Part shown: positions 5,166-58,928 of the stretch, piece after piece | Layout of the letters: each line of letters begins with the position of its first letter | Numbering within the stretch: position 1 is the stretch's first letter | NCBI GenBank assembly: GCA_902801155.1 | Contig: CADCHG010000003.1 | Location: 16,831-80,830, forward strand | DNA from: an uncultured Prevotellaceae bacterium | Lineage (GTDB): Bacteria > Bacteroidota > Bacteroidia > Bacteroidales > Bacteroidaceae | Direction: 5' to 3' | Length of the DNA stretch: 64,000 bases | The notes under the pieces: generated by a model | Told to the model about the DNA's origin: nothing | The model's database searches: none | Seen by the model: only the letters and a program-made list of their open reading frames with translations | Program-made: the position numbers and the translations under genes

Positions 5166-5826
5166 ATAGAATACAAACAACGGCCTGAAAGGCCAACGAG
5201 CACCCAGCCCAGGGTATCACCCTGGGAATAATTAATTACAAATCTAATAACGCCCTGTAAGGGCAAAAGCATTACAATTATGGCACAATCGCTATGTAAA
5301 ATATATTTGCATATCATCTTCCATGTGAAGACAACCAGTCCGCAAATTGCCAATGAGCATCTGGAACGTATGCATAGCTATATAGGACAGTTGGTCAATA
5401 CTATTGGCTGTAATGTAATCCGTGTGGGCGGTATTGGTGATCATGTTCATATTGTATGTGTGCTATCGAGAAATGAGAATGTTTCACATCTTGTGGAAGA
5501 GATTAAACGCAATAGTAGCCGATGGATAAAGACATTAGCCCCGATTTATGAGCATTTTGCATGGCAGAGTGGCTATGCGGTCTTTTCTGTCAGCCAATCG
5601 CAAGTCGATAAGGTGATTGATTATGTTGTCAATCAGGCAGAACACCACAAGAAACAGAGTTTTCGAGAGGAATATCTGAATTTTTTACGACTATATAACA
5701 TAGAATATGATGATAGATATGTTTTATCCGATTGAATGCTTTTGCCCTTTCAGGGCGTAAGGAGGACGATACTCAAAACCCAGGGCGATGCCCTGGGCTG
5801 TGCGCAACCCCTGCCCTTTCAGGGCG
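5136..5826 (+). mobile_element. IS200/IS605-superfamily (REP-associated, RAYT-like) element: tnpA flanked by alternating palindromic repeats
   Basis: Left hairpins at 5136-5158, 5182-5194, 5205-5226 and 5251-5273; right hairpins at 5735-5757, 5779-5800 and 5813-5826. CGCCCTGTAAGGGCAAAAGCATT (left) is the reverse complement of AATGCTTTTGCCCTTTCAGGGCG (right) with one mismatch. Confidence 0.85.
5280..5735 (+). CDS. tnpA: HUH Y1 tyrosine transposase (IS200/IS605 TnpA / RAYT-like)
   Basis: YLHIIFHVK, DHVH (HUH motif), FAWQSGYAVFSVS and the catalytic-Tyr segment YVVNQAEHH; 151 aa; no tnpB. Confidence 0.93.
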   Translation: MAQSLCKIYLHIIFHVKTTSPQIANEHLERMHSYIGQLVNTIGCNVIRVGGIGDHVHIVCVLSRNENVSHLVEEIKRNSSRWIKTLAPIYEHFAWQSGYAVFSVSQSQVDKVIDYVVNQAEHHKKQSFREEYLNFLRLYNIEYDDRYVLSD

Positions 5827-5902
5827 CAATTTGGCAGTATTTTATTACCGTATAGGTCTATTTCTCATTCCCATAACGGGCTTTCTTCCTTGCAAGAAAG
5901 TC

Positions 5903-8236: not shown

Positions 8237-9073
8237 ATGGAAAAATTTAAGCCTGTTCTCAAATTTTGTGGGATTTATATTGTGACAGTCATTGCATTAG
8301 TGGTTATGGATATGTTTTACCGTGCTATGATAGATGTCTTTGGCATTACAGTTCCGAAATCCGCATTTGATACGGTAATAGCAGAGAGTTTTATTTTGGT
8401 TTCTGTAATAGTCGCATGGAAATATGGCTTGATAGACTTGCCTTTAGAATTTAAGAATGGCAGAGATACGTTGTCTAAAAATGCACTTTCATTATTTGCG
8501 GGCGTTTTATGGGTGGTAGTTATAAAGTTTCTGCAATATATACATATACCTGACAATGTTGATTTTAATGTTGATGGCCCAAAAGATGTTTTACTGATCT
8601 ATAGTCATCTTTCAGAAACGTGGTTTGGCTTGTTTATGGTCGGCATAGGGGGACCTTTGACAGAGGAATTGTTTTTTCGGACAGCAGTTCTTGGGTTGAT
8701 GTTACGGAGTGGTGTAAAACCATGGGTGGCTATTGTGTTGTCGGCTTTTTTGTTTGGTATATTCCATCTTAATGTTTGGCAATTCGTTGGTTCGGGGTTG
8801 TTTGGCTTAATGATTGGATATATTTACTACAAGACGAACAACATATTGGTAGTAATGATAATTCATATCTTTAACAATACTTTTGGGGTTGTCTTACTTG
8901 GAATGGCTATTTGGAAATTTAATGCCCCAAATGTTGTAGGCATATCCATAAGTGTGGTATTTATGATTGCTTTTGCCATAGCTGGTGTTTTAGTCATGAA
9001 ACGTTTCTGTTCTCAATATCCCCAACCTCAATTTGTGGAAAATGATGAGTCTGACGAGCAGGTAATGGAATAG
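8237..9073 (+). CDS. CPBP family (Abi/CAAX type II) intramembrane metalloprotease
   Basis: EELFFR, FGIFH and HIFNN motifs; multiple TM helices. Confidence 0.92.
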   Translation: MEKFKPVLKFCGIYIVTVIALVVMDMFYRAMIDVFGITVPKSAFDTVIAESFILVSVIVAWKYGLIDLPLEFKNGRDTLSKNALSLFAGVLWVVVIKFLQYIHIPDNVDFNVDGPKDVLLIYSHLSETWFGLFMVGIGGPLTEELFFRTAVLGLMLRSGVKPWVAIVLSAFLFGIFHLNVWQFVGSGLFGLMIGYIYYKTNNILVVMIIHIFNNTFGVVLLGMAIWKFNAPNVVGISISVVFMIAFAIAGVLVMKRFCSQYPQPQFVENDESDEQVME

Positions 9074-9161
9074 TGCTAAATGAATTTCTCTTTTCTTACC
9101 ATCTTTCTTTAGAATGGCACGCCCTTTGTTTATTCAGGATAAATTATAAACAAAAAAAATA

Positions 9162-9767
9162 ATGGAAGAAAAGGAAATAAACATAGAGGAACTGCTGAAA
9201 AAGGCTGAGAATGAGCAGGAAGCAAAGGCTCCTGAGTCTGAAGAGAACGTTAACGCTGAGGCTGCGACTGACACAAATGTCACAGAAGAAGAGACAAAGA
9301 CTGACGAAGAGTCAGCACCTGCTGACCCTTTGGCAGAACTCCAGAATCAGGTAGAGGAACTCAAGAAGGAAATGCTCTACAAGCAGGCTGAGTTCGAGAA
9401 CTACCGTAAGCGTACTATCAAGGAGAAGGCTGAGCTTATCCTCGGTGGTGGTGAGAAGACCATCAAGGAGATTCTGCCTGTGCTCGATGATTTTGAGCGT
9501 GCTCTTGCCGATAAGACAGAAGACCCTAATGCTATTCGTGAGGGTATGCAGCTTATTTTCAACAAGTTCGTTTCTACACTCGAGAAACTGGGTGTGAAGA
9601 AGATCGAGACTGAGGGTGCAGACTTCAATGTGGATTTCCATGAGGCTATCGCACTTGTTCCGGGACTTGGTGATGAGATGAAGGGTAAGGTTATCGATTG
9701 CACAAAGACCGGTTACATGCTCAATGATAAGGTAATACGTCACGCACAGGTAGCTGTGGGTCAGTAA
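9162..9767 (+). CDS. grpE: Nucleotide exchange factor GrpE
   Basis: AEFENYRKRT, LPVLDDFERA, FHEAI, GYMLNDKVIRHAQV. Confidence 0.97.
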   Translation: MEEKEINIEELLKKAENEQEAKAPESEENVNAEAATDTNVTEEETKTDEESAPADPLAELQNQVEELKKEMLYKQAEFENYRKRTIKEKAELILGGGEKTIKEILPVLDDFERALADKTEDPNAIREGMQLIFNKFVSTLEKLGVKKIETEGADFNVDFHEAIALVPGLGDEMKGKVIDCTKTGYMLNDKVIRHAQVAVGQ

Positions 9768-9788
9768 TATAAGGAAAGGGAGAATTTT

Positions 9789-10955
9789 ATGGCAAAAAGA
9801 GACTATTACGAGGTGCTTGGCGTTGATAAGTCGGCAAGCGCAGCAGAGATAAAGAAAGCCTACCGTAAGTTGGCTATCAAGTATCATCCTGACAAGAATC
9901 CTGGCAACAAGGAGGCTGAGGAGAAGTTCAAAGAGGCTGCTGAGGCGTATGCTGTGCTTTCTGATGAGCAGAAGCGTCAGCAATATGATCAGTTCGGTTT
10001 CAACGGTCCTAACGGCTTTGGCGGAGACGGTGGCTTTGGTGGCTTCGGAGGTGGATTCTCTATGGATGACATCTTCTCAGCATTCGGCGACATCTTCGGA
10101 GGTCATAGCGGCTTCGGAGGTGGTTTCGGCGGCTTCGGCAGAGGTGGTGGTCGTCAGCAGCACCGTGGAGCAGACCTTCGTCTGAAGGTGAAGCTTACTC
10201 TGCAGGAGATTTCAACAGGTGTTACGAAGAAGTTCAAGGTTCGTAAATACGTTACCTGTGATTGCTGTCACGGCTCTGGTGCAGAGGCTGGTAGCGGTAC
10301 AGAGACTTGTAACACATGTCACGGCTCAGGCTATGTGGTTCGCTCAAAGCAGAGCATTTTTGGAATGATGCAGACACAGAGCCCTTGTCCTACTTGTGGT
10401 GGCGAGGGTACTGTAATCAAGAATAAGTGTAAGAAATGTAACGGCGAGGGCGTTGTCCTTGGCGAGGAAGTAGTTGAGGTCAACATACCTGCAGGTGTTC
10501 AGGACGGTATGGTTGTGAATGTTGCAGGCAAGGGAAATGCCGGCAAGCGCAATGGCGTGAACGGAGATATTCAGGTGTTCATCACAGAAGAGCAGAACGA
10601 TGTGTTTGTTCGTGACGGCAACGACTTGATTTACAATCTCTTGCTCGACTTCCCAACAGCCGCTCTTGGTGGCGAGGTTCTTGTTCCTACGGTTGACGGA
10701 CATCAGGCAAAGGTTACGATACAGCCAGGTACTCAGCCTGGTACGGTAATGCGACTTCGTGGTAAGGGACTTCCTGCTGTTTCCGGCTACGGCTATGGCA
10801 CAGGTGATATTCTCATCAACGTCAGCATATACGTTCCTAAGACACTCAACAAGGATGAGCGCAAGGCTATCGAGGCTCTTCGCGAGAGTGAGAACTTCCA
10901 GGGCGACAAGCAGACGAAGAAGTCAATCTTCGACAGATTCAAGAATTATTTCTAA
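9789..10955 (+). CDS. dnaJ: Chaperone DnaJ
   Basis: J domain with HPD, G/F-rich region, four CxxCxGxG repeats. Confidence 0.98.
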
Positions 10956-10984
10956 TAAGAAATAAGGGCTAATTTATCGCCTTC

Positions 10985-11058
10985 CGGCTCGCTCCCTACG
11001 GGGGAAGTCCGATGTTGATAACATCGGAGTATGTGTCAGGAGCGGGGGGAGAGGCCGC
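10985..11058. repeat. Composite palindromic repeat (intergenic copy of the element found inside nspC)
   Basis: 31-bp core AAGTCCGATGTTGATAACATCGGAGTATGTG (11005-11035) is identical to 14245-14275; flanks CGGCTC...CCTACGG and GAGGCCGC are shared. Confidence 0.9.
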
Positions 11059-11066
11059 TTTTTAAT

Positions 11067-12332
11067 ATGAACTATTCAGAGACATTAGAATATCTATACA
11101 CAAGCACCCCCGTTTTTGAGCGAGTGGGTGCTTCTGCGTATAAGGAGGGCTTGGAGAATACCATAGCCCTTGATAATCATTTCGGTAATCCGCATACCCT
11201 TTACAAGACCATCCACGTAGCTGGAACTAATGGTAAGGGCTCAACCTCACATACCCTTGCGGCAATACTCCAGAGTGCAGGCTATCGTGTAGGACTATAT
11301 ACCTCTCCGCATCTTGTGGATTTCTCTGAGCGAATCCGCGTGAATGGAGAGCCTATAAGTCATGAGTATGTCGTTGATTTCGTGCGTGATAATAAGGATT
11401 TCTTTGAACCACTTAATCCTTCTTTCTTTGAAATCGTTACGGCTATGGCTTTCCGCTATTTCGCTGAGAAACACGTAGATATAGCCGTTGTTGAGGTGGG
11501 ACTTGGCGGTCGTCTTGATTGCACAAATATCATTTCTCCAGTCTTGTCGGTTATCACAAACATCTCATTTGACCATACAGGTTTTCTTGGTGATACTCTT
11601 GCGAAAATAGCCGTAGAGAAGGCTGGAATCATCAAGCCTAAGACTCCAGTTGTGATAGGAGAATATTTGCCTGAGACTCTTCCTGTATTCCGTCAGAAAG
11701 CTGAGGAAATGAATGCAGAACTGATACTTGCGCAGGATAGGGTAGGGCAGTATTCTGTTCCCGAATTCCAACTTAAGGGAGCGTGTCAGGAACGTAATCT
11801 TCAGACAATTCTAACGGCTGCCCATGAACTTATACGTCTTGGCATTCTCTCTGATGAAAAGCCTATACTAGAGGGCTGTGCCCGCGTCTGTGACTTAACA
11901 GGTCTTCGTGGCCGTTGGGAAACTCTCTCAGAATCACCTCTTACTATATGTGATACTGGTCATAACCTTGCTGGATGGGAATTCCTTGCTCCCCATATAT
12001 ATAAGGTGTATGAGGAAAAGAAAGCGCAGAATCCAGATACAAGGCTTCGTATAGTCTTTGGAATGGTTGATGACAAGGATATCAATTCGGTTCTTTCGCT
12101 CTTGCCGAAGGATGCTTGCTATTATTTTTGTCAGGCTTCCACCCATAGGGCTATACCTGTGGAAAAGGTGGTTGCGTTGGCTGCAGAGCATGATCTTAAA
12201 GGTAAGGGCTTCCCTTCTGTCGTGGAGGCTTATGAAAAGGCAAAGGAAGATGCCTCTGATGCTGATTTCATCTTCGTAGGAGGTAGTAGCTATGTGGTTG
12301 CTGATCTCTTGTCCTCTTCACTTTTTCAATAA
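11067..12332 (+). CDS. folC: Folylpolyglutamate synthase/dihydrofolate synthase
   Basis: HVAGTNGKGS, YTSPHL, EVGLGGRLDCTN, DTGHN. ATG 11067 preferred because the upstream ATG lies inside the repeat. Confidence 0.95.
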   Translation: MNYSETLEYLYTSTPVFERVGASAYKEGLENTIALDNHFGNPHTLYKTIHVAGTNGKGSTSHTLAAILQSAGYRVGLYTSPHLVDFSERIRVNGEPISHEYVVDFVRDNKDFFEPLNPSFFEIVTAMAFRYFAEKHVDIAVVEVGLGGRLDCTNIISPVLSVITNISFDHTGFLGDTLAKIAVEKAGIIKPKTPVVIGEYLPETLPVFRQKAEEMNAELILAQDRVGQYSVPEFQLKGACQERNLQTILTAAHELIRLGILSDEKPILEGCARVCDLTGLRGRWETLSESPLTICDTGHNLAGWEFLAPHIYKVYEEKKAQNPDTRLRIVFGMVDDKDINSVLSLLPKDACYYFCQASTHRAIPVEKVVALAAEHDLKGKGFPSVVEAYEKAKEDASDADFIFVGGSSYVVADLLSSSLFQ

Positions 12333-12408
12333 AAAAGAGACAAATCCTTGTTTTTACGGAAAAAATCACTATCTTTGCACTCAATAATAATCATTAAAAC
12401 TGTTTTCT

Positions 12409-13122
12409 ATGACACCACACATTAATGCCAAGGATGGTGCTTTTGCAAAGACCGTTCTTATGCCGGGTGATCCGCTTCGTGCAAAGCTTCTGGCAGATAC
12501 ATTCCTTGAGAATGCTGAACTCGTAACTGACGTTCGTAATATATATGGCTATACAGGCACTTATAAGGGCGTTCCTGTAAGCGTTATGGCTTCTGGCATG
12601 GGTATGCCGAGCATCGGTATCTATTCTTGGGAACTGTTCTCTTTCTATGGTGTAGAGAATATCATCCGTATAGGTTCTGCTGGTAGCTATTCTGCTCAGC
12701 TTGACGTGCTTGACGTGGTTCTTGCTAAGGAGGCTTATAGCGAGTCTTCATTTGCTAAGACTTTGAGCGGATATGATAAAGATACAATCATTCCGAGCAA
12801 GAGTGTGAATGATGTTATTATACAGGCAGCAAAGGATGCAGATATTGAGTGCAAACTTGCGCGTGTTCATTCATCTGACGTCTTCTATACTAAGGAATCA
12901 TGGCAGGATATCCATGCACGTACCAAGTGCGACTGTGTGGAGATGGAGGCTTTTGCCCTCTTCCATAATGCTAATGTCCTTGGCAAGAATGCCGCTTGTC
13001 TGCTTACCATCAGCGATTCCTTCGTGAATAAGCGAGAACTGACTTCTGACGAGCGTCAGAACTCATTTAAGAACATGATGACCGTAGCTCTTGAGGCTGC
13101 AATAAGACTTTACCAGAAGTGA
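12409..13122 (+). CDS. deoD: Purine-nucleoside phosphorylase, DeoD type
   Basis: MTPHI, MPGDPLRAK, GMGMPSIGIY, IIRIGSAG, VEME motifs. Confidence 0.95.
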   Translation: MTPHINAKDGAFAKTVLMPGDPLRAKLLADTFLENAELVTDVRNIYGYTGTYKGVPVSVMASGMGMPSIGIYSWELFSFYGVENIIRIGSAGSYSAQLDVLDVVLAKEAYSESSFAKTLSGYDKDTIIPSKSVNDVIIQAAKDADIECKLARVHSSDVFYTKESWQDIHARTKCDCVEMEAFALFHNANVLGKNAACLLTISDSFVNKRELTSDERQNSFKNMMTVALEAAIRLYQK

Positions 13123-13247
13123 AAAGTGAAGAGTGAAGAGTGAAAAATTTGAATTACCTTTTATTGCGATAATTTTATTATCGACTATAAACTGCAATAC
13201 AAACTTAAATTTTTCACTCTTCACTTTTCACTCTTCACTTTTCACTT
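13117..13247. repeat. Inverted heptamer-array element: (RAGTGAA)4 ... (TTCACTY)5
   Basis: The arms are reverse complements ending in AAATTT and enclose a ~55-bp spacer; the left arm supplies the deoD stop codon. Confidence 0.9.
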
Positions 13248-13269
13248 GAGCTATGCGAAAGTTGAAAAA

Positions 13270-14535
13270 ATGAAAGTAAATCCCGAAACATACGAAGGAC
13301 TTACTCATCCGGCATACGTGTTGGAAGAGAAGCGTCTGCGCAGAAACCTTGCCCTCATTCTTGATGTGGCTGAGCGCTCAGGTGTTGAGATAATCCTTGC
13401 ATTCAAGGCGTATGCCCTTTGGAAGACCTTCCCGATCTTCCGTGAGTATATATCAAGTACTACGGCTTCAAGTCTTTCTGAGGCTCGCTTGGCGTATGAG
13501 GAGTTTGGCGCTCCTGCACATACATTCTCTCCTGCATATACGGACTATGAGATTGATGATATTGCGCGGATGTCGAGTCATCTAACGTTCAATTCGCTTT
13601 CGCAGTATGAGCGATATCATAATCGGGCAAAGGCTGTTAATTCGGCTATAAAGCTTGGTGTACGTGTAAATCCTGAGTATTCCGAGGTGGGTACTGATAT
13701 TTATAACCCTTGTGCTCCTGGCACTCGCTTTGGCGTACTTGCTGAAGACCTTCCAGATAAGCTTCCGGCGGATATAACGGGTTTCCATTGCCATTGTCAT
13801 TGTGAGAGCGGTTCTGACGTCTTCCAACGCACTCTCGTACATATAGAGGAAAAGTTCAGTAAGTGGTTTCCGCAGCTAGAATGGATAAACTTCGGCGGCG
13901 GACATCTTATGACCCGTGCTGATTATGATGTTGAGCTACTTGTCTCTATCCTTACTGATTTCCGTAAGCGTTATCCAAACCTCAAGGTCATTCTTGAACC
14001 AGGTTCTGCCTTTGGTTGGCAGACTGGTCCTTTAGTCTCTCATGTTGTTGATATAGTAGAGAATCACGGCATTCGTACGGCTATTCTTGATGTCAGCTTC
14101 ACTTGCCATATGCCTGACTGCCTTGAAATGCCTTATCATCCTGCTGTTCGTGGGGCAGAAACTATAGAGAATGCTTTGGATCGTTTAGAGGGTGACTACA
14201 TTGGTGGCGTTAGCGGCTCCCTTCCTACGGAGAAGGGTGAGGGAAAGTCCGATGTTGATAACATCGGAGTATGTGCAAGAGGCCGCAGTTCCTTCCTCTA
14301 CCGTCTCGGCGGAAACAGTTGTCTCTCTGGCGACTGGATGTCAGCGTGGCGTTTTGATCACGAGCTTCAGATAGGTGAGACCATCATTTTTGAGGATATG
14401 CTTCATTACACCACAGTAAAGACATGTACCTTCAATGGTATAAGTCATCCTGCAATCTGTCTTTTGCGTGAGGATAACGAGCTTGTAACCCTACGTGAGT
14501 ATTCCTATGAGGATTATCGAGATAGAATGGATTGA
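13270..14535 (+). CDS. nspC: Carboxynorspermidine decarboxylase carrying an in-frame repeat insertion
   Basis: LAFKA (PLP lysine), INFGGG, LEPG, HMPDCLEMPY, GGNSCLSGD, HYTTVK motifs. Confidence 0.93.
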   Translation: MKVNPETYEGLTHPAYVLEEKRLRRNLALILDVAERSGVEIILAFKAYALWKTFPIFREYISSTTASSLSEARLAYEEFGAPAHTFSPAYTDYEIDDIARMSSHLTFNSLSQYERYHNRAKAVNSAIKLGVRVNPEYSEVGTDIYNPCAPGTRFGVLAEDLPDKLPADITGFHCHCHCESGSDVFQRTLVHIEEKFSKWFPQLEWINFGGGHLMTRADYDVELLVSILTDFRKRYPNLKVILEPGSAFGWQTGPLVSHVVDIVENHGIRTAILDVSFTCHMPDCLEMPYHPAVRGAETIENALDRLEGDYIGGVSGSLPTEKGEGKSDVDNIGVCARGRSSFLYRLGGNSCLSGDWMSAWRFDHELQIGETIIFEDMLHYTTVKTCTFNGISHPAICLLREDNELVTLREYSYEDYRDRMD

Positions 14536-14653
14536 TATAAATCAATCCGCATGGAAATAAGAATGATTTTTTCATTGTATCATTCTTTTGTTTCAAAAAT
14601 AATTACTACCTTTGCACTCGCAATTGAGAAATCAATGGCAAATATAACCAAAT

Positions 14654-14728
14654 GGTGGATGTAGTTCAGTTGGTTAGAGCGTCAGATTGTGGTTCTGAAT
14701 GTCGTGGGTTCGAGCCCCACCCTCCACC
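14654..14728 (+). tRNA. tRNA-His (GTG) with encoded G-1; CCA not encoded
   Basis: Cloverleaf: anticodon arm TCAGA-TTGTGGT-TCTGA, T arm GTGGG-TTCGAGC-CCCAC, discriminator C; upstream TACCTTTG box. Confidence 0.96.
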
Positions 14729-14731
14729 CTT

Positions 14732-14766
14732 AAAAGCGTAGGTCTTTTTTAGGACTTACGCTTTTT
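14732..14766 (+). terminator. Intrinsic terminator after tRNA-His
   Basis: AAAAGCGTAGGTC...GACTTACGCTTTTT stem with a T tract. Confidence 0.8.
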
Positions 14767-15390
14767 CTTTTTGTTTGGGAAAGAATACGTCGTTATACTT
14801 TTAATATAAGGTGAGTCGATGAATTTCCATATAAACAGATAAATCCGTTTCCTTTTCGCTTCGTATATTCTTAGAGCTTGGCTATAACGATAAGATACTC
14901 CTTGGCGATAGATGTTTGGAATATTGGAAATATGAGTCAAAAAAACTCTTGAAATATCCTTCCTGAGAATTTAATATTTCCGACCATGTGTAAGGCTGCT
15001 TGAAAATATTCGATTCTCACGCGGCGGAAAAGTTGAAAAGTTGTTGCTTATGGACAAATTTGAAGATTGAGAATTGGGAAAATATGAACAGTATTGTTCT
15101 TTAGGCGTTAGTCCTAACATCGAATATAGCACTCTATTGAAGTGTTAAATGTTCACTTTTTATCAGTTTTTTGTTCAAAATTGTTAAATTTTCTATGTTT
15201 TGTGCTTAAACGTAGTTAGAAAGCGTGTAATTTTGTGGAAGTTTGTGTTACATATTGGATAGTCTCCTTTTAAGGCTTTGAATATTAAGTGGTTATGCTT
15301 TTAAATTTTAGAAAATGTAACAAATATGAAAGTGTCAAAAATTGTGAAAAAGTGTGTTTTTTACAAATATAAAATATACCAAACAAAAAA

Positions 15391-15457
15391 TGTAACAAAT
15401 GAGTATTGTATATGTAACAGCTGGATTTGTCTAAAATATATTAAAAGTGTACCTTTG
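15391..15457 (+). promoter_or_regulatory. susC1 promoter: TGTAAC direct-repeat pair, -33 TTTG and -7 TACCTTTG
   Basis: TGTAAC at 15391 and 15413, TTTG at 15426, TACCTTTG at 15450; the same spacing occurs upstream of susC2. Confidence 0.75.
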
Positions 15458-15529
15458 TAACCAGTTTTGTAGATCAACCTAGAAAAATTTTTAAAAAAAA
15501 CCAAATTATTAACTTAAACTTATCGAAAA

Positions 15530-18500
15530 ATGCGAAAACTTGAAAAGTTGGGAACTTGGAGCAGAACATTTCTCCTCCTTTCCGTCCTTTGCTTCTTTAC
15601 AGTACTCGCTCAGGCACAGACTGTAAAAGGTGTCGTAAGAGACCAGAACGGCGAAGCTGTCATCGGAGCGACTGTTAAGGTGTTAGGTGCCAGAGGTGGT
15701 ACTGTAACTGACAACAAAGGACAGTATTCAATTGATGCGCCATCAGGTTCTATCCTCACGGTTAGCTATGTTGGTTATCTGACAAAGCAGATACGTCTGA
15801 GAGGCGAGAATATGGTTGACGTAACTCTTATGGAAGATAACACAACCCTTAATGACATCGTTGTCATTGGTTATGGTACTCAGAAGAAATCAGACCTTAC
15901 AGGTTCTGTGGCTTCTGTAAAGGCAGAGGAACTGAAAGGCCTTTCTACAACTGATGCCGGAGCTGCACTTCAGGGTAAGGCTTCTGGTGTTCAGGTCTTG
16001 AATGGTTCTGGTAAGCCAGGTGAAGGTGCTAAGATCCGTGTCCGTGGTTATTCTTCTAACTCTGATCAACTTGAACCTCTTTATATTGTAGATGGTCTTA
16101 AAGTAAGTAGCATCCAGTATCTTGACCCATCAATGATTGAGTCTATGGAAGTGTTGAAGGATGCTGCTTCTGCTGCTATCTATGGTATTGAGGCTGGTAA
16201 CGGTGTCGTACTTATCACTACTAAGAGTGGTCAAAAAGGTACAGGTACCATTAATTATACTGGTAAGTTCACTAACCAGATGTTAGGTCATACTCCAGAG
16301 CTCCTTAACGCTTCAGAGTTCAAGGACTGGATGACTATGGTGCAGGGTGCTAATAACACTATCAACAAGGATATGGAAACATATCAGAAACAGTATGGTT
16401 GGGATCCTAACACTGATACAAACTGGCTTGACGAGTTCTTTGAGGATACTTGGGCTGCACAGCACACTCTCACCTTCCAGGGTGGTAACGACCGTGGCTC
16501 TTATTTCCTGAGCACAAGCTATGTAAATCAGGACGGTATCGTTAAGGGTAACAAGGATAAGTATGAGCGTCTTACAGCTCAGATTAATGCTGACTATCAG
16601 ATCAAGGATTGGTTGAAGATCGGTACAAACACATCTATCGAGAAGTGGTCTTCACGTGGCATTTCTCAGAATGGTTATGGTTCAGCATTCGAAATGCTTC
16701 TCGTAATGGATCCTCTGACTCCTGTATATTGGACAAACCCAAGCCAGATGCTTGAGACATATCGCGATTACTACAATAATCCAGATAGTAAATATAAGCT
16801 CTATGGCGATGAGAATGGACAGTATTCAACATCTTATTTCAACCAGCGTCTCGCTGGTGGTCACCCATTCACTCAGCGTGATCGTGCTCAGCAGAAAGAT
16901 AGCGGTATTAACGTAAACGGTTCTGCTTTCATGAACATCACTCCAACGAAGTGGCTTACATTCACATCTCGTCTTGGCTATCGTCTCTGGTTCAACAACC
17001 AGACTAACTATGATGAGCCATACTATATCAATGCTCAGGGTGGTGCACAAAATGGTCGTAGGCTTTTTGATAAGAAGGGACATGGCACATTCTACCAGTG
17101 GGATAACTTCGTTAACTTCAATGAGACATTCGGCAAGCACGGTCTTTCTGCAATGGCGGGTATGTCATACCAGCAGTACGACGATGACTTCTTGCAGGTA
17201 AATATTACAGGTTCTGATATCCTCAAGGATTATGGTCCAAACTTCAGATATCCAAGGAGTGTAAAGACTGGTGGTGACACAACTATTAGTCCTGATGGTG
17301 TGACAGGTACAAGTCGTAGCCTCTCATATTTCGGTCGTTTGATTTATAACTTCGATGATCGTTATAGCTTGCAGGGTAACATTCGTACTGATGCGAAAGA
17401 TCTTTCTACACTTGGAAAGGATAATCGTTGGGGTACATTCTACTCTGGATCTGCAGCTTGGACATTCTCTAATGAATCATTCTTCAAGAATGCAGTTGAC
17501 TCAAAGATTATGTCATTTGGTAAGATCCGTGTATCTTGGGGTAAAAACGGTAGCTTAGGTCCTTTGTCTGGTCGATATGCATATACCGCAGGCCTTAATA
17601 CTAATGGCTCATGGTATAACTATGGACCAACAAATGCTGTAAATTATGGTTCTAAGCCAACTAACATTGCCAACCCAAATCTTACTTGGGAGGAATCAAC
17701 ACAGATTGACCTTGGTGCTGACTTCCGTTTCTTGAACAGTCGTCTCTCTCTCGGTGTTGACTGGTATAAGAAGCAAACCGTGGATCTTCTTCTTTCTGCT
17801 CAGATCGATAAACTCTCAGGTTTCGATTCAATGTATAAAAATGCCGGTAAGATTGAGAACACTGGTCTTGAAATCGAGCTTTCTTGGAAGGACAATATCG
17901 GTGACTTCAAGTATGGCATCTCCGCTAACATGGCAACTATGAAGAATAAGGTTATCGAGCTTAGTGATGATTGCCAGCTTATCTCAGGTGGAACTGTAAG
18001 TGGTGCTAGCCCAGCATCTATTACTTGCTATACAGAGCCTGGACACCCATTGTGGTATATGCGTGGTTATAAGTTCGCTGGAGCTGACGCAGAGGGTAAA
18101 CCTCTCTTTGAGCATTATGAAAATGGTCAGGTTACTCTTGTAAATAGTCCAACACCTTCTGATTTGACAGATATCGGTTCTGGTTTTGCTGATGTTACTT
18201 ACGGTATCACTCTTAATGCAGAGTATAAGGGTATTGACCTCACAATCTTCGGTACTGGTGCTGCAGGTAATGATGTATTCTACGGTCTCTATCGTACAGG
18301 TTACAACAATATAGCCAAGGGCGTTTACGACGACTTCAAGTCTGGCAAGTTAGGTGATGCTTCTATGGCTGCTGGTGTTGCAGAGCAGTTCTACCAGTCT
18401 TCTGCTATGGTATATGATGGTTCATACTTCAAGATCAAGCAGATTCAGCTCGGTTACACATTCCCAAAGAGCCTGACTCAGAAGGTTGCTATCGAGAATC

Positions 18501-31755: not shown

Positions 31756-31860
31756 AACGGACTTACAACGGATTCATAACGGTATTACAACGGACTTAAG
31801 ACTGGCTTGATTCTTCAGTGTCGGAAAGTATGATGTTGATACTGTCAGAGTATGTGTCAG
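31756..31860. repeat. 11-bp array (4 x AACGGACTTAC-like) plus a degenerate copy of the nspC-type core
   Basis: Array at 31756-31799; AAGTATGATGTTGATACTGTCAGAGTATGTGTCAG at 31826-31860 (6 mismatches in 35 bp vs 11005-11039). Confidence 0.8.
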
Positions 31861-57524: not shown

Positions 57525-58928
57525 CTACCACGCCCTCTTCGCCTTCAATTCTATGTATTTGCTTAGTATGCCGAAGGAGAGAGCCTCTGGATGTATGGAA
57601 AGACAGTAGATGCCGTTTTGCTGAAGGGTGTCGGCTATAAGTTGTTTTTGGTTCACCATGTCTTTGGCGAGGGTACTCTCCACGCATAGGGAGTGTGTTC
57701 TGCCTATATACTTTGTTCGCAAGTTCATCAAGCTAAAGCTAGTTCTTCGCTTGGGCTCATCAAGCTGCGTAAATCTACTTTCATCTAACCCTTTTCTACT
57801 TTCTGCCATGTCTTCAAGTTCACGGTCAAGGCAGTTTACTATAACAAGACAGTTGCGTGAAGAAATACGCTTGAAGAACTGCAACTGACGTTCAAGGACT
57901 GATATAGTAGGAATCTCAGTATATAGGAATATCAGACTTCTGCGCTTTACGTTACGGTCTATTACAAGACAGAGCTGCTCAATGTCGCTCTCGCCATACT
58001 CCGTGTCAAGAGCATATAGTTGCTGCATTATACTGTTGAACTGCGGTTTTCCTGCCCTCGGAGGCAGAAAACTTATCCCCTTGGGACCGTATGAGCAGAC
58101 GCCTACGCAGTCTGACTCCCTTTCCAAAGCGGAGTAGGACACGAGCAGAGAGGCATTAATGGCATGGTCTTGAAGAGATAGGGAGTTAAAGGTGCGTTGC
58201 ATGGCTGTCCCGCAGTCAATCACGTTGATGACGTGCTGTGAACGCTCATCCTCGTATTCATTCACCATGGTATGCCCTGTTCTTGCCGTCGCCTTCCAGT
58301 TTATGGTACGTATATCATCGCCTGTCACATACTCTCTAATATCACGGAACTCGGTCTTGTTGGCAGGCAATTGCCTCTTGTGGTTTCCTGTTGATATTGT
58401 CTGTCGGGACCGCACCAGTTCGTCCTTCTCGCGGAGTCTTGAGAATGCAGGATATACATCAACCTCCTGTCCTTCCGGTTGGAGTATTATTCTGCGTTCA
58501 AGCAGTCCAAGACATGATGCATAGACGAGAGACCTGCCAAGTAGGAAATGTCCCCTTTTGCAATTGAAGATTGAAAGTTGAGAATTGAAAGTAATCCTAT
58601 CTTCACTTTCCATCTTTATTTTTTCATTCTCCTTTTGGTGAAATTCAGATGGTATCTCGTCAATGACGTAGGCACTCATAATCCATCCTTTTCTTATTTT
58701 GAAAGATATGGAATATACGTTTTCTTCGCCAAGGTCGAGTTTTGAGGCAATATCCCTTCCGCCATCGATATGCAGCAGCATTAGCAGCACGGTATCAATA
58801 GCCGATGCCATGACAAACAGGCATAGCAATACGAGTGCTATGCCATACAGCGCATCGACCATCACACCAAGGGCTGATATGGTTGCAATGGCAAACAGGA
58901 TAATGAAAAATCGCTTTTTTATGAACAT
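57525..58928 (-). CDS. DUF58 (VWA-like) protein carrying two repeat-derived segments
   Basis: EFRDIREYVTGDDIRTINWKATAR, VNEYEDERSQ, IDCG motifs; follows MoxR. Confidence 0.92.
   Translation of the reverse strand: MFIKKRFFIILFAIATISALGVMVDALYGIALVLLCLFVMASAIDTVLLMLLHIDGGRDIASKLDLGEENVYSISFKIRKGWIMSAYVIDEIPSEFHQKENEKIKMESEDRITFNSQLSIFNCKRGHFLLGRSLVYASCLGLLERRIILQPEGQEVDVYPAFSRLREKDELVRSRQTISTGNHKRQLPANKTEFRDIREYVTGDDIRTINWKATARTGHTMVNEYEDERSQHVINVIDCGTAMQRTFNSLSLQDHAINASLLVSYSALERESDCVGVCSYGPKGISFLPPRAGKPQFNSIMQQLYALDTEYGESDIEQLCLVIDRNVKRRSLIFLYTEIPTISVLERQLQFFKRISSRNCLVIVNCLDRELEDMAESRKGLDESRFTQLDEPKRRTSFSLMNLRTKYIGRTHSLCVESTLAKDMVNQKQLIADTLQQNGIYCLSIHPEALSFGILSKYIELKAKRAW

Follow-up and report, generated by a model that had tools for sequence, protein, structure and literature searches.

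What is the palindromic sequence that interrupts nspC in this Prevotella genome, and does it add a segment to the protein? A sequence-only reading of the window, i.e. the whole stretch of 64,000 nucleotides analysed here (C3:16831-80830 of assembly G000), had noticed that part of nspC matches an element of the dnaJ-folC spacer, and proposed that a repeat family was adding protein sequence in this lineage. The source genome G000 is a MAG (81% complete, 2.76 Mb, 89 contigs, 44% GC), and it was compared with the genomes of three sister species, G055, G149 and G212; the four are close kin, with NspC identities of 93-95%. The reading that we prefer is that window positions 14207-14286 are a lineage-specific, two-tier palindromic mobile repeat. 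We give it a probability of about 0.8, a joint figure that covers the insertion into nspC, the kept frame and selection, the later 9-nt indels, the gain and loss of a 33-nt core, and translation, and does not extend to the enzyme that would move the core. The features concerned are listed in Table 1.

Table 1. Repeat-associated features of the window, and abundance of the host hairpin classes in the source genome (G000).
Feature	Position in window	Strand	Copies in G000	At least 60 codons deep in ORF	Basis
nspC, carboxynorspermidine/carboxyspermidine decarboxylase, 421 aa	13270..14535	+			PF00278, 36gy_A, AF2, orthologue alignment
Class-A host hairpin, left arm, in nspC	14207..14244	+			Alignment with intergenic class-A copies and with G055 and G212 nspC
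33-nt mobile core unit in nspC	14245..14277	+			31/31 identity, covarying stem, presence/absence at orthologous hosts
Class-A host, right-arm remnant, in nspC	14278..14286	+			Alignment with G212
Class-A host hairpin, left arm, dnaJ-folC spacer	10974..11004	+			Found at the orthologous G149 site without the core
33-nt core unit, dnaJ-folC spacer	11005..11037	+			Found in G000 and G055 but not in the G149 host
Class-A host hairpin, right arm, dnaJ-folC spacer	11038..11057	+			RNA fold -39.5 kcal/mol, z=-2.95
Degenerate core copy, intergenic, 6 mismatches, weakened stem	31826..31856	+			nhmmer E=4.4e-7
Host class A (GC-rich hairpin)			78 (9-11 with core)	23%	
Host class B			about 52	25%	
Host class C			25	4%	
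Host class D			98	0%	
Host class E			96	8%	
Random 40-nt positions				58%	

The interrupted gene was characterized through its product. Its start was placed at the conserved ATG 13270 by alignment with 22 orthologues; a longer ORF runs from a TTG at 13246. NspC matches PDB entries 36gy_A (E=3e-166) and 3n29 (E=3e-96) as well as Pfam family PF00278, and both full-length similarity and catalytic motifs place it among the fold-type III PLP decarboxylases. The columns of these motifs (K46, H173, E243 and C351-x-x-x-D355) are invariant across 23 NspC orthologues. The best PDB matches of the AlphaFold2 model are structures of carboxynorspermidine decarboxylase (CANSDC), with a TMt of 0.87 to 3n29. 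Outside the loop discussed below, dN/dS is 0.016-0.042 in all six species pairs (dS 0.56-0.98), and the gene is under strong purifying selection. Its surroundings contain two further features. Just upstream of the start, an inverted repeat of 130 nt (13117-13247) has tandem GTGAARA heptamers on its left side and their complement on its right. Its DNA fold has -36.8 kcal/mol (z=-10.6), and related arrays number about 19 in G000. A tRNA gene (58.5 bits) is found at 14655-14728, about 120 nt downstream of nspC.

The match between nspC and the spacer is exact over 31 of 31 nt (14245-14275 and 11005-11035), reaches 32 nt with one mismatch, and is equalled in none of 100 dinucleotide shuffles. The element had been described as a counterpart of the dnaJ-folC repeat with a 31-bp core and a hairpin closed by a GAT loop, and this description is confirmed; the ORF is intact and its translation agrees with the peptide quoted at the time. 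The repeat falls in a loop bounded by the motifs VRGA and YRLGG. This loop, which the sequence-only reading took to be much shorter in Bacteroides NspC, has 47 residues in G000 NspC compared with 6-25 in 23 orthologues of the same genus and order and 4 in the closest solved homologue (36gy_A). No loop in this range of 4-25 residues offers an equally long but unrelated segment. In G055 and G212, nspC is interrupted by this element at the identical site. The G149 site is uninterrupted, and its loop of 22 residues is shorter by 25 residues (75 nt); it is not a clean empty site, as the flanking loop residues differ too. The proposed in-frame insertion of a dispersed palindromic repeat is borne out by this distribution.

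Comparison of the three interrupted genes shows that the element has changed since it was acquired. Relative to G212, the G000 copy has 9 additional nt in the left arm, an insertion also seen relative to G055, and 9 nt fewer in the G-run of the right arm; the G055 copy lacks 9 nt at its right end. All three indels within the element are thus of 9 nt, and the G212 copy looks, from the alignment, to be nearest to the original insert. A class-A host hairpin with its core landed as a unit in the hypervariable loop of NspC, i.e. the nspC copy arrived as a composite. Host hairpins also move with the core aboard, because several loci share composites whose junctions are identical. In the AlphaFold2 model, residues 305-339 have a pLDDT below 50 and the rest of the fold is confident. 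The repeat-derived residues are 315-339. The insert is modelled with low confidence as a loop, on a decarboxylase fold that is normal elsewhere, in line with the loop position that the structural check was meant to establish. We infer that the insert is translated into about 25 extra residues, probably disordered and exposed at the surface, and that it is tolerated and not useful.

The core is a unit of 33 nt, composed of a conserved hairpin of 31 nt and two variable nucleotides. Its order is 5' AAGTC, a 9-bp stem, a 3-nt loop (GAT), 3' GAGTATGTG and the two variable nucleotides. The stem is paired in 93.5% of the cells of an alignment of 24 distinct core variants, compensatory double changes affect 4 of its 9 pairs, and the observed covariation score was reached by none of 500 shuffles. 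The 3' tail, of 7-9 nt, is the most conserved part of the core. It is intact in 34 of 35 copies of a list that was not conditioned on the tail; its invariance in core alignment A3 is partly circular, the search pattern having demanded the tail. The tag preceding the stem is GAAG in most copies; a minority TAG variant preceded by G yields GTAG (23 of about 170 core occurrences). No CGTC tag was found at either end of the core in the core alignment. Five of the six reading frames of the core are open, and the nspC unit encodes K-S-D-V-D-N-I-G-V-C-A.

This core is far from unique to the two loci compared above. G000 contains 35 copies at no more than 6 mismatches, 12 of them exact; 30 copies are found at no more than 2 mismatches of a 28-nt pattern, 38 by nhmmer, and about 45 when a second subfamily is added, so that the possibility of a core occurring nowhere else in the genome is discarded. 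The degenerate third core suspected at 31826 is a real member of the family (6 mismatches, E=4e-7). The second subfamily numbers about 13 copies in G000 (contigs C4, C19, C33, C35, C42, C44, C72 and C73), mostly within host class E. Its tails are identical to those of the first, its stem is different and covarying, with 8 bp around a 5-nt loop. The largest number of copies, 58, was found in G055, which is 99% complete. Among 201 sampled genomes of the genus, only G000, G055, G149 and G212 possess the family, and outside these four it was seen only in rumen or gut Prevotellaceae MAGs. A metagenome scan with a tail pattern of 14 specified bases returned 124 matches, mostly due to chance; 14 passed a hairpin filter, 6 were judged to be members, and no further core subfamily appeared among the 124. 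An Rfam scan of window positions 9000-16000 at E<=1 gave no match at the nspC or spacer copy, and reported only a tRNA and spurious miRNA matches on a separate long hairpin. As a separate observation, a longer repeat with arrays of AACGGA-type 11-mers encloses core-bearing class-B copies (G000:C11:235, C35:483, C74:7928 and window 31756-31799). Class-B copies with core in this array repeat are located at contig ends, where they probably break the assembly.

The second level of organization is given by the host hairpins. Class A, the first tier at nspC, is a GC-rich hairpin of about 40-45 nt, and each of the classes A-E is much more numerous without the core than with it. At least five host classes contain the core, which occupies three positions within class A (following the G-run of the loop, following that of the right arm, and in a reverse-oriented host); the left flank of the core is a G-run in every class from A to E. 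Three orthologous sites allow filled and host-only states to be compared directly. The TrmO site is filled in G000 and G055 and host-only in G212, with a difference of exactly 33 nt. The CobB site is filled in G000 and host-only in G149, again with a difference of exactly 33 nt, and it is also filled in G212 according to protein alignment and DNA match. In the non-coding dnaJ-folC spacer, which is filled in G000 and G055, host-only in G149 and devoid of the whole element in G212, filled and host-only states differ by 34 nt. None of the three sites shows a target-site duplication, and the junction ambiguity is 1 nt. These alignments show that what has come or gone at orthologous host hairpins is the core, as one discrete unit of 33 nt. 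It inserts immediately 3' of a G-run, mostly in or beside the loop of a tier-1 hairpin, without duplication of the target.

The earlier suggestion that the core moves on its own is therefore retained on account of the host-only and filled states at TrmO, CobB and the spacer and of the five host classes, but not on the evidence then given for it. The apparent shift of the core within its host between nspC and the spacer is an artefact, caused by the two later 9-nt indels in the G000 nspC element. Composites with identical junctions at several loci imply that the hosts also move while carrying the core. The spacer raises a question of annotation as well. The longest folC ORF begins at ATG 11031, within the repeat core; the ATG at 11067, 9 nt after the end of the right arm of the host, has been kept in all four species, even in the one free of the element, and is likely the true start. 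In G212, where the GC-rich element is absent, this spacer is filled by heptamer arrays like GTGAARA.

The core was found in frame in three further genes of G000, TrmO-like, CobB/CbiA-like and RsmB-like, by six-frame analysis and ORF lists, and each of these copies is an insertion according to orthologue alignment. The TrmO/YaeB-like gene reads the core in the same frame as nspC, the CobB/CbiA-like gene in the second forward frame, and the RsmB/NOP2-like gene in a reverse-strand frame. A frame survey of 171 unique core copies, drawn from G000 and nine related MAGs, placed 27 of them at least 60 codons deep within an uninterrupted frame; long open frames abutting the core in different frames number at most 8 (P=1.4e-7 against an expectation of 1/3). 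Taken together with the 9-nt indels of nspC, this bias suggests that a copy inside a gene survives only if it leaves the reading frame passable, and hence would be translated. The proposal that the family adds protein sequence in this lineage is thus extended from nspC to unrelated genes. Other repeats are found in some of these genes. The N-terminal region of the RsmB/NOP2-like methyltransferase (L033, G000:C9:7000-10000, ORF 624-2174 on the minus strand) has received several insertions of different GC-rich repeats; its orthologues in sister species carry different repeat sets at the same places, and class-A hosts are found in both orientations. The TrmO orthologue of G149 (L164, G149:C70) has at the class-A site a different insertion, about 40 aa longer and made of other GC-rich repeats. 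The TrmO loop appears to be a repeated landing site for GC-rich repeats. For the other in-frame repeat pointed out by the sequence-only reading (DUF58, 57716-57775), no close copies were found in G000 at up to 4 mismatches.

The distribution of the element was confronted with a tree built from dnaJ, folC and nspC, i.e. ((G000,G055),(G149,G212)). The presence of the nspC insert in G000, G055 and G212 means that it predates the split of those lineages, and its absence from G149 requires, given this tree, one loss or two gains. More generally, G149 alone lacks the nspC composite and the CobB core, and G212 alone lacks the spacer host; these conflicts with the tree oblige one to assume precise losses or repeated gains. 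Conservation is also unusual. The nspC core is identical over 31 of 31 nt in three species at dS 0.56-0.8, for which the neutral expectation is about 2e-7. Across orthologous pairs, one outlier pair being removed, host arms are about 98% identical compared with about 93% for the mostly coding flanks; in this test the arm result alone is usable, the core part being circular as loci were chosen by their core. A simple ancient insertion followed by neutral decay would not predict such near-identity of core and arms. It could result from selection on the hairpin, from conversion among copies or from re-insertion at a hot target.

Intergenic copies are located between tandem genes in 25 cases and between convergent genes in 4 cases, never between divergent genes (P=2e-4), and they show no strand bias relative to the flanking genes (11 same, 14 opposite). 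An enzyme acting in trans would recognise the hairpin and the conserved single-stranded tails on DNA. By analogy with known systems, peel-and-paste by an HUH/Y1 enzyme (RAYT or IS200/IS605-like) may move the core, a suggestion that we hold at clearly less than even odds. The only Y1 gene of G000 is at 5280-5735, 9 kb from the nspC copy, and encodes a RAYT-like IS200-like transposase (PF01797). It is bracketed, like a REPtron, by inverted GC-rich hairpins of two types (5170-5270 and 5740-5830); neither type is related to the core, and they number only 2 and 6 copies in G000. PF01797 has no match in G055, and clustering of the genes neighbouring about 170 copies revealed no recurrent transposase or gene family beside the core. 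The association with Y1 is weak in these three respects, and a Y1 enzyme therefore receives only a minority of the probability. The regions between direct core pairs in G149 and G055, considered as a possible autonomous parent element, contain only ordinary housekeeping genes. The core does not conform to a classical MITE mobilised by a DDE enzyme, since filled and host-only sites differ by a clean 33 nt, the junction is ambiguous by no more than 1 nt, and the target is not duplicated. The lack of duplication and the fixed, seamless 3' insertion target at a G-run are those of PATE-like elements, i.e. miniature elements derived from IS200/IS605. A bolder and rather doubtful extension would see in the 33-nt unit an ultra-small mobile element of an undescribed kind, which homes to hairpin loops or G-runs under a non-RAYT enzyme, stays near-invariant and repeatedly writes an 11-residue cassette into the proteins that bear its hosts. 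This would imply seamless insertion and excision without duplication, and an invariance across species maintained by selection or conversion.

Four other explanations have to be weighed against the two-tier mobile repeat, and two of them concern the nature of the core. It might be a GTAG-type REP mobilised by a RAYT, i.e. an ordinary REP/REPIN system that happens to strike genes. The succession of tag, 9-bp stem, short loop and tail fits this architecture, the minority variant places GTAG directly before the stem, a RAYT-like gene lies in the window, intragenic REPs are documented, and REPs are likewise found between tandem and convergent genes (PMC3733652). We nevertheless consider it unlikely: most copies have GAAG and not GTAG, the Y1 gene is flanked by hairpins other than the core, as a REPtron would not be, G055 harbours its 58 copies without a PF01797 match, and most copies are solitary and lie within other hairpins instead of forming inverted REPIN doublets. 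Somewhat less likely again is an immobile core, that is, a conserved functional hairpin (a protein-binding site, or a stabiliser or terminator of RNA) which spreads only with its hosts, the host-only sites being secondary deletions. The strict conservation of core and arms reported above, the recurrent same-junction composites and the position of intergenic copies downstream of genes are all compatible with such a role. What speaks for mobility is that the same unit of 33 nt makes the difference at three independent host-only sites, with a microhomology of only 1 nt, whereas slippage deletions would end at the base of the hairpin, which these do not; moreover the same core is found in five unrelated host classes and at three class-A positions. 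The lack of strand bias goes against a strand-specific RNA role, and there is no Rfam match.

The two others concern the insert in nspC itself. It could be absent from the mature protein, either cut out of the mRNA or bypassed during translation as in T4 gene 60 and the yeast mitochondrial 'byp' elements; the hairpin is stable, and 33 nt is a multiple of three that keeps the frame either way. This is very improbable, as neither removal nor bypass accounts for the bias of 27 to at most 8 in favour of frame-preserving, stop-free states, or for indels of the nspC copy that are all of 9 nt; the element has no pair of take-off and landing codons and no internal stop, and no ribozyme or intron model matched in the Rfam scan. 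Mis-assembly of a repeat into nspC, or decay of nspC into a pseudogene, would be conceivable for an 81%-complete MAG in 89 contigs. We regard it as scarcely credible, given that two independently assembled MAGs contain the same insert at the same site, and that the ORF is intact with a dN/dS of about 0.02 and every catalytic-motif column conserved. The preferred reading thus remains a translated composite of host hairpin and mobile core.

These results extend repeat-derived protein segments from Rickettsia and a few REP-rich taxa to abundant, free-living rumen Prevotella. The empty, host-only and host-plus-core states observed at orthologous sites of sister species, in genes and in spacers, constitute a natural experiment. 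It makes testable how very short hairpins choose their targets and move without a linked transposase, how enzymes tolerate such inserts, and why the elements remain almost identical beside synonymous sites that are near saturation. On the practical side, the repeats break MAG assemblies, mislead start-codon calls (as for folC) and inflate the loop diversity of protein families.

Several known systems bear comparison with this family. In yeast mitochondria, short GC-rich hairpins known as GC clusters, including the 'byps', invade AT-richer genomes and enter protein-coding genes too. Those clusters belong to an organelle, and ribosomes bypass many of them, whereas ordinary translation is favoured for the Prevotella core.

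The sequence-only reading had drawn the analogy with Rickettsia palindromic elements (RPEs), in-frame palindromic repeats within genes (Ogata et al. 2000, 2002) that are reviewed in PMC10969869. RPEs are likewise dispersed palindromes, both intergenic and in frame in unrelated housekeeping genes, which contribute peptide segments and leave the host genes functional, with several families per genome. The behaviour of the Prevotella family is the same: its copies are intergenic and in frame in unrelated genes, they are absent from orthologues, and the host genes are intact. The analogy holds to this extent; it has to be widened, since intragenic repeats of the RPE type also occur outside Rickettsia (PMC3733652). 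Common descent is not indicated, since the core has no CGTC tag and only 4 of the 201 Prevotella genomes, together with related MAGs, possess the family. Judged by their descriptions, RPEs share no apparent sequence similarity with the core. RPE-1 measures about 150 bp, compared with about 75-80 nt for the composite and 33 nt for the mobile core, and the RPE description consulted includes neither two-tier nesting nor a polymorphism between host-only and host-plus-core states. The short RPE-4 and RPE-6 are CGTC-tagged (PMC3733652), unlike the core. The organisms also differ, an obligate intracellular alphaproteobacterium on one side and a free-living rumen Bacteroidota on the other.

REPs of the GTAG and CGTC superfamilies have been reported within genes of Opitutus, Rickettsia, Xanthomonas and others (Di Nocera et al. 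2013, PMC3733652). The same study records CGTC REPs from Bacteroidetes, and the CGTC REPs are among the families that lack a dedicated transposase. The core resembles them as a tagged hairpin of 20-40 nt with a stem of 8-9 bp, a small loop and an unpaired tail, and some of these REPs lie within known genes, where they encode 20-30 aa. It differs from them by its tag (mostly GAAG, in a minority GTAG, never CGTC), by a long tail of 7-9 nt that is its most conserved part, and by its occurrence mostly as single units inside other hairpins and not as dimers or BIME-like arrays. With the REP/REPIN-RAYT and IS200/IS605 systems (PMC2817692, PMC3733652) the core shares a hairpin with conserved single-stranded flanks, insertion beside a short specific sequence, the lack of target duplication and seamless presence or absence. 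The differences are that no RAYT is flanked by the core, that G055 has no detectable Y1 gene and that the core is a single hairpin instead of left and right ends. No description of a Prevotella or Bacteroidetes equivalent, or of a hairpin-in-hairpin core, was found in the literature searched. Intragenic palindromic repeats are thus already known. What is new here is a lineage-restricted family with a mobile core nested as a hairpin in a hairpin, and its distinctive features are the separate mobility of the 33-nt core, the nesting, the three-state orthologous sites and the strong conservation of sequence.
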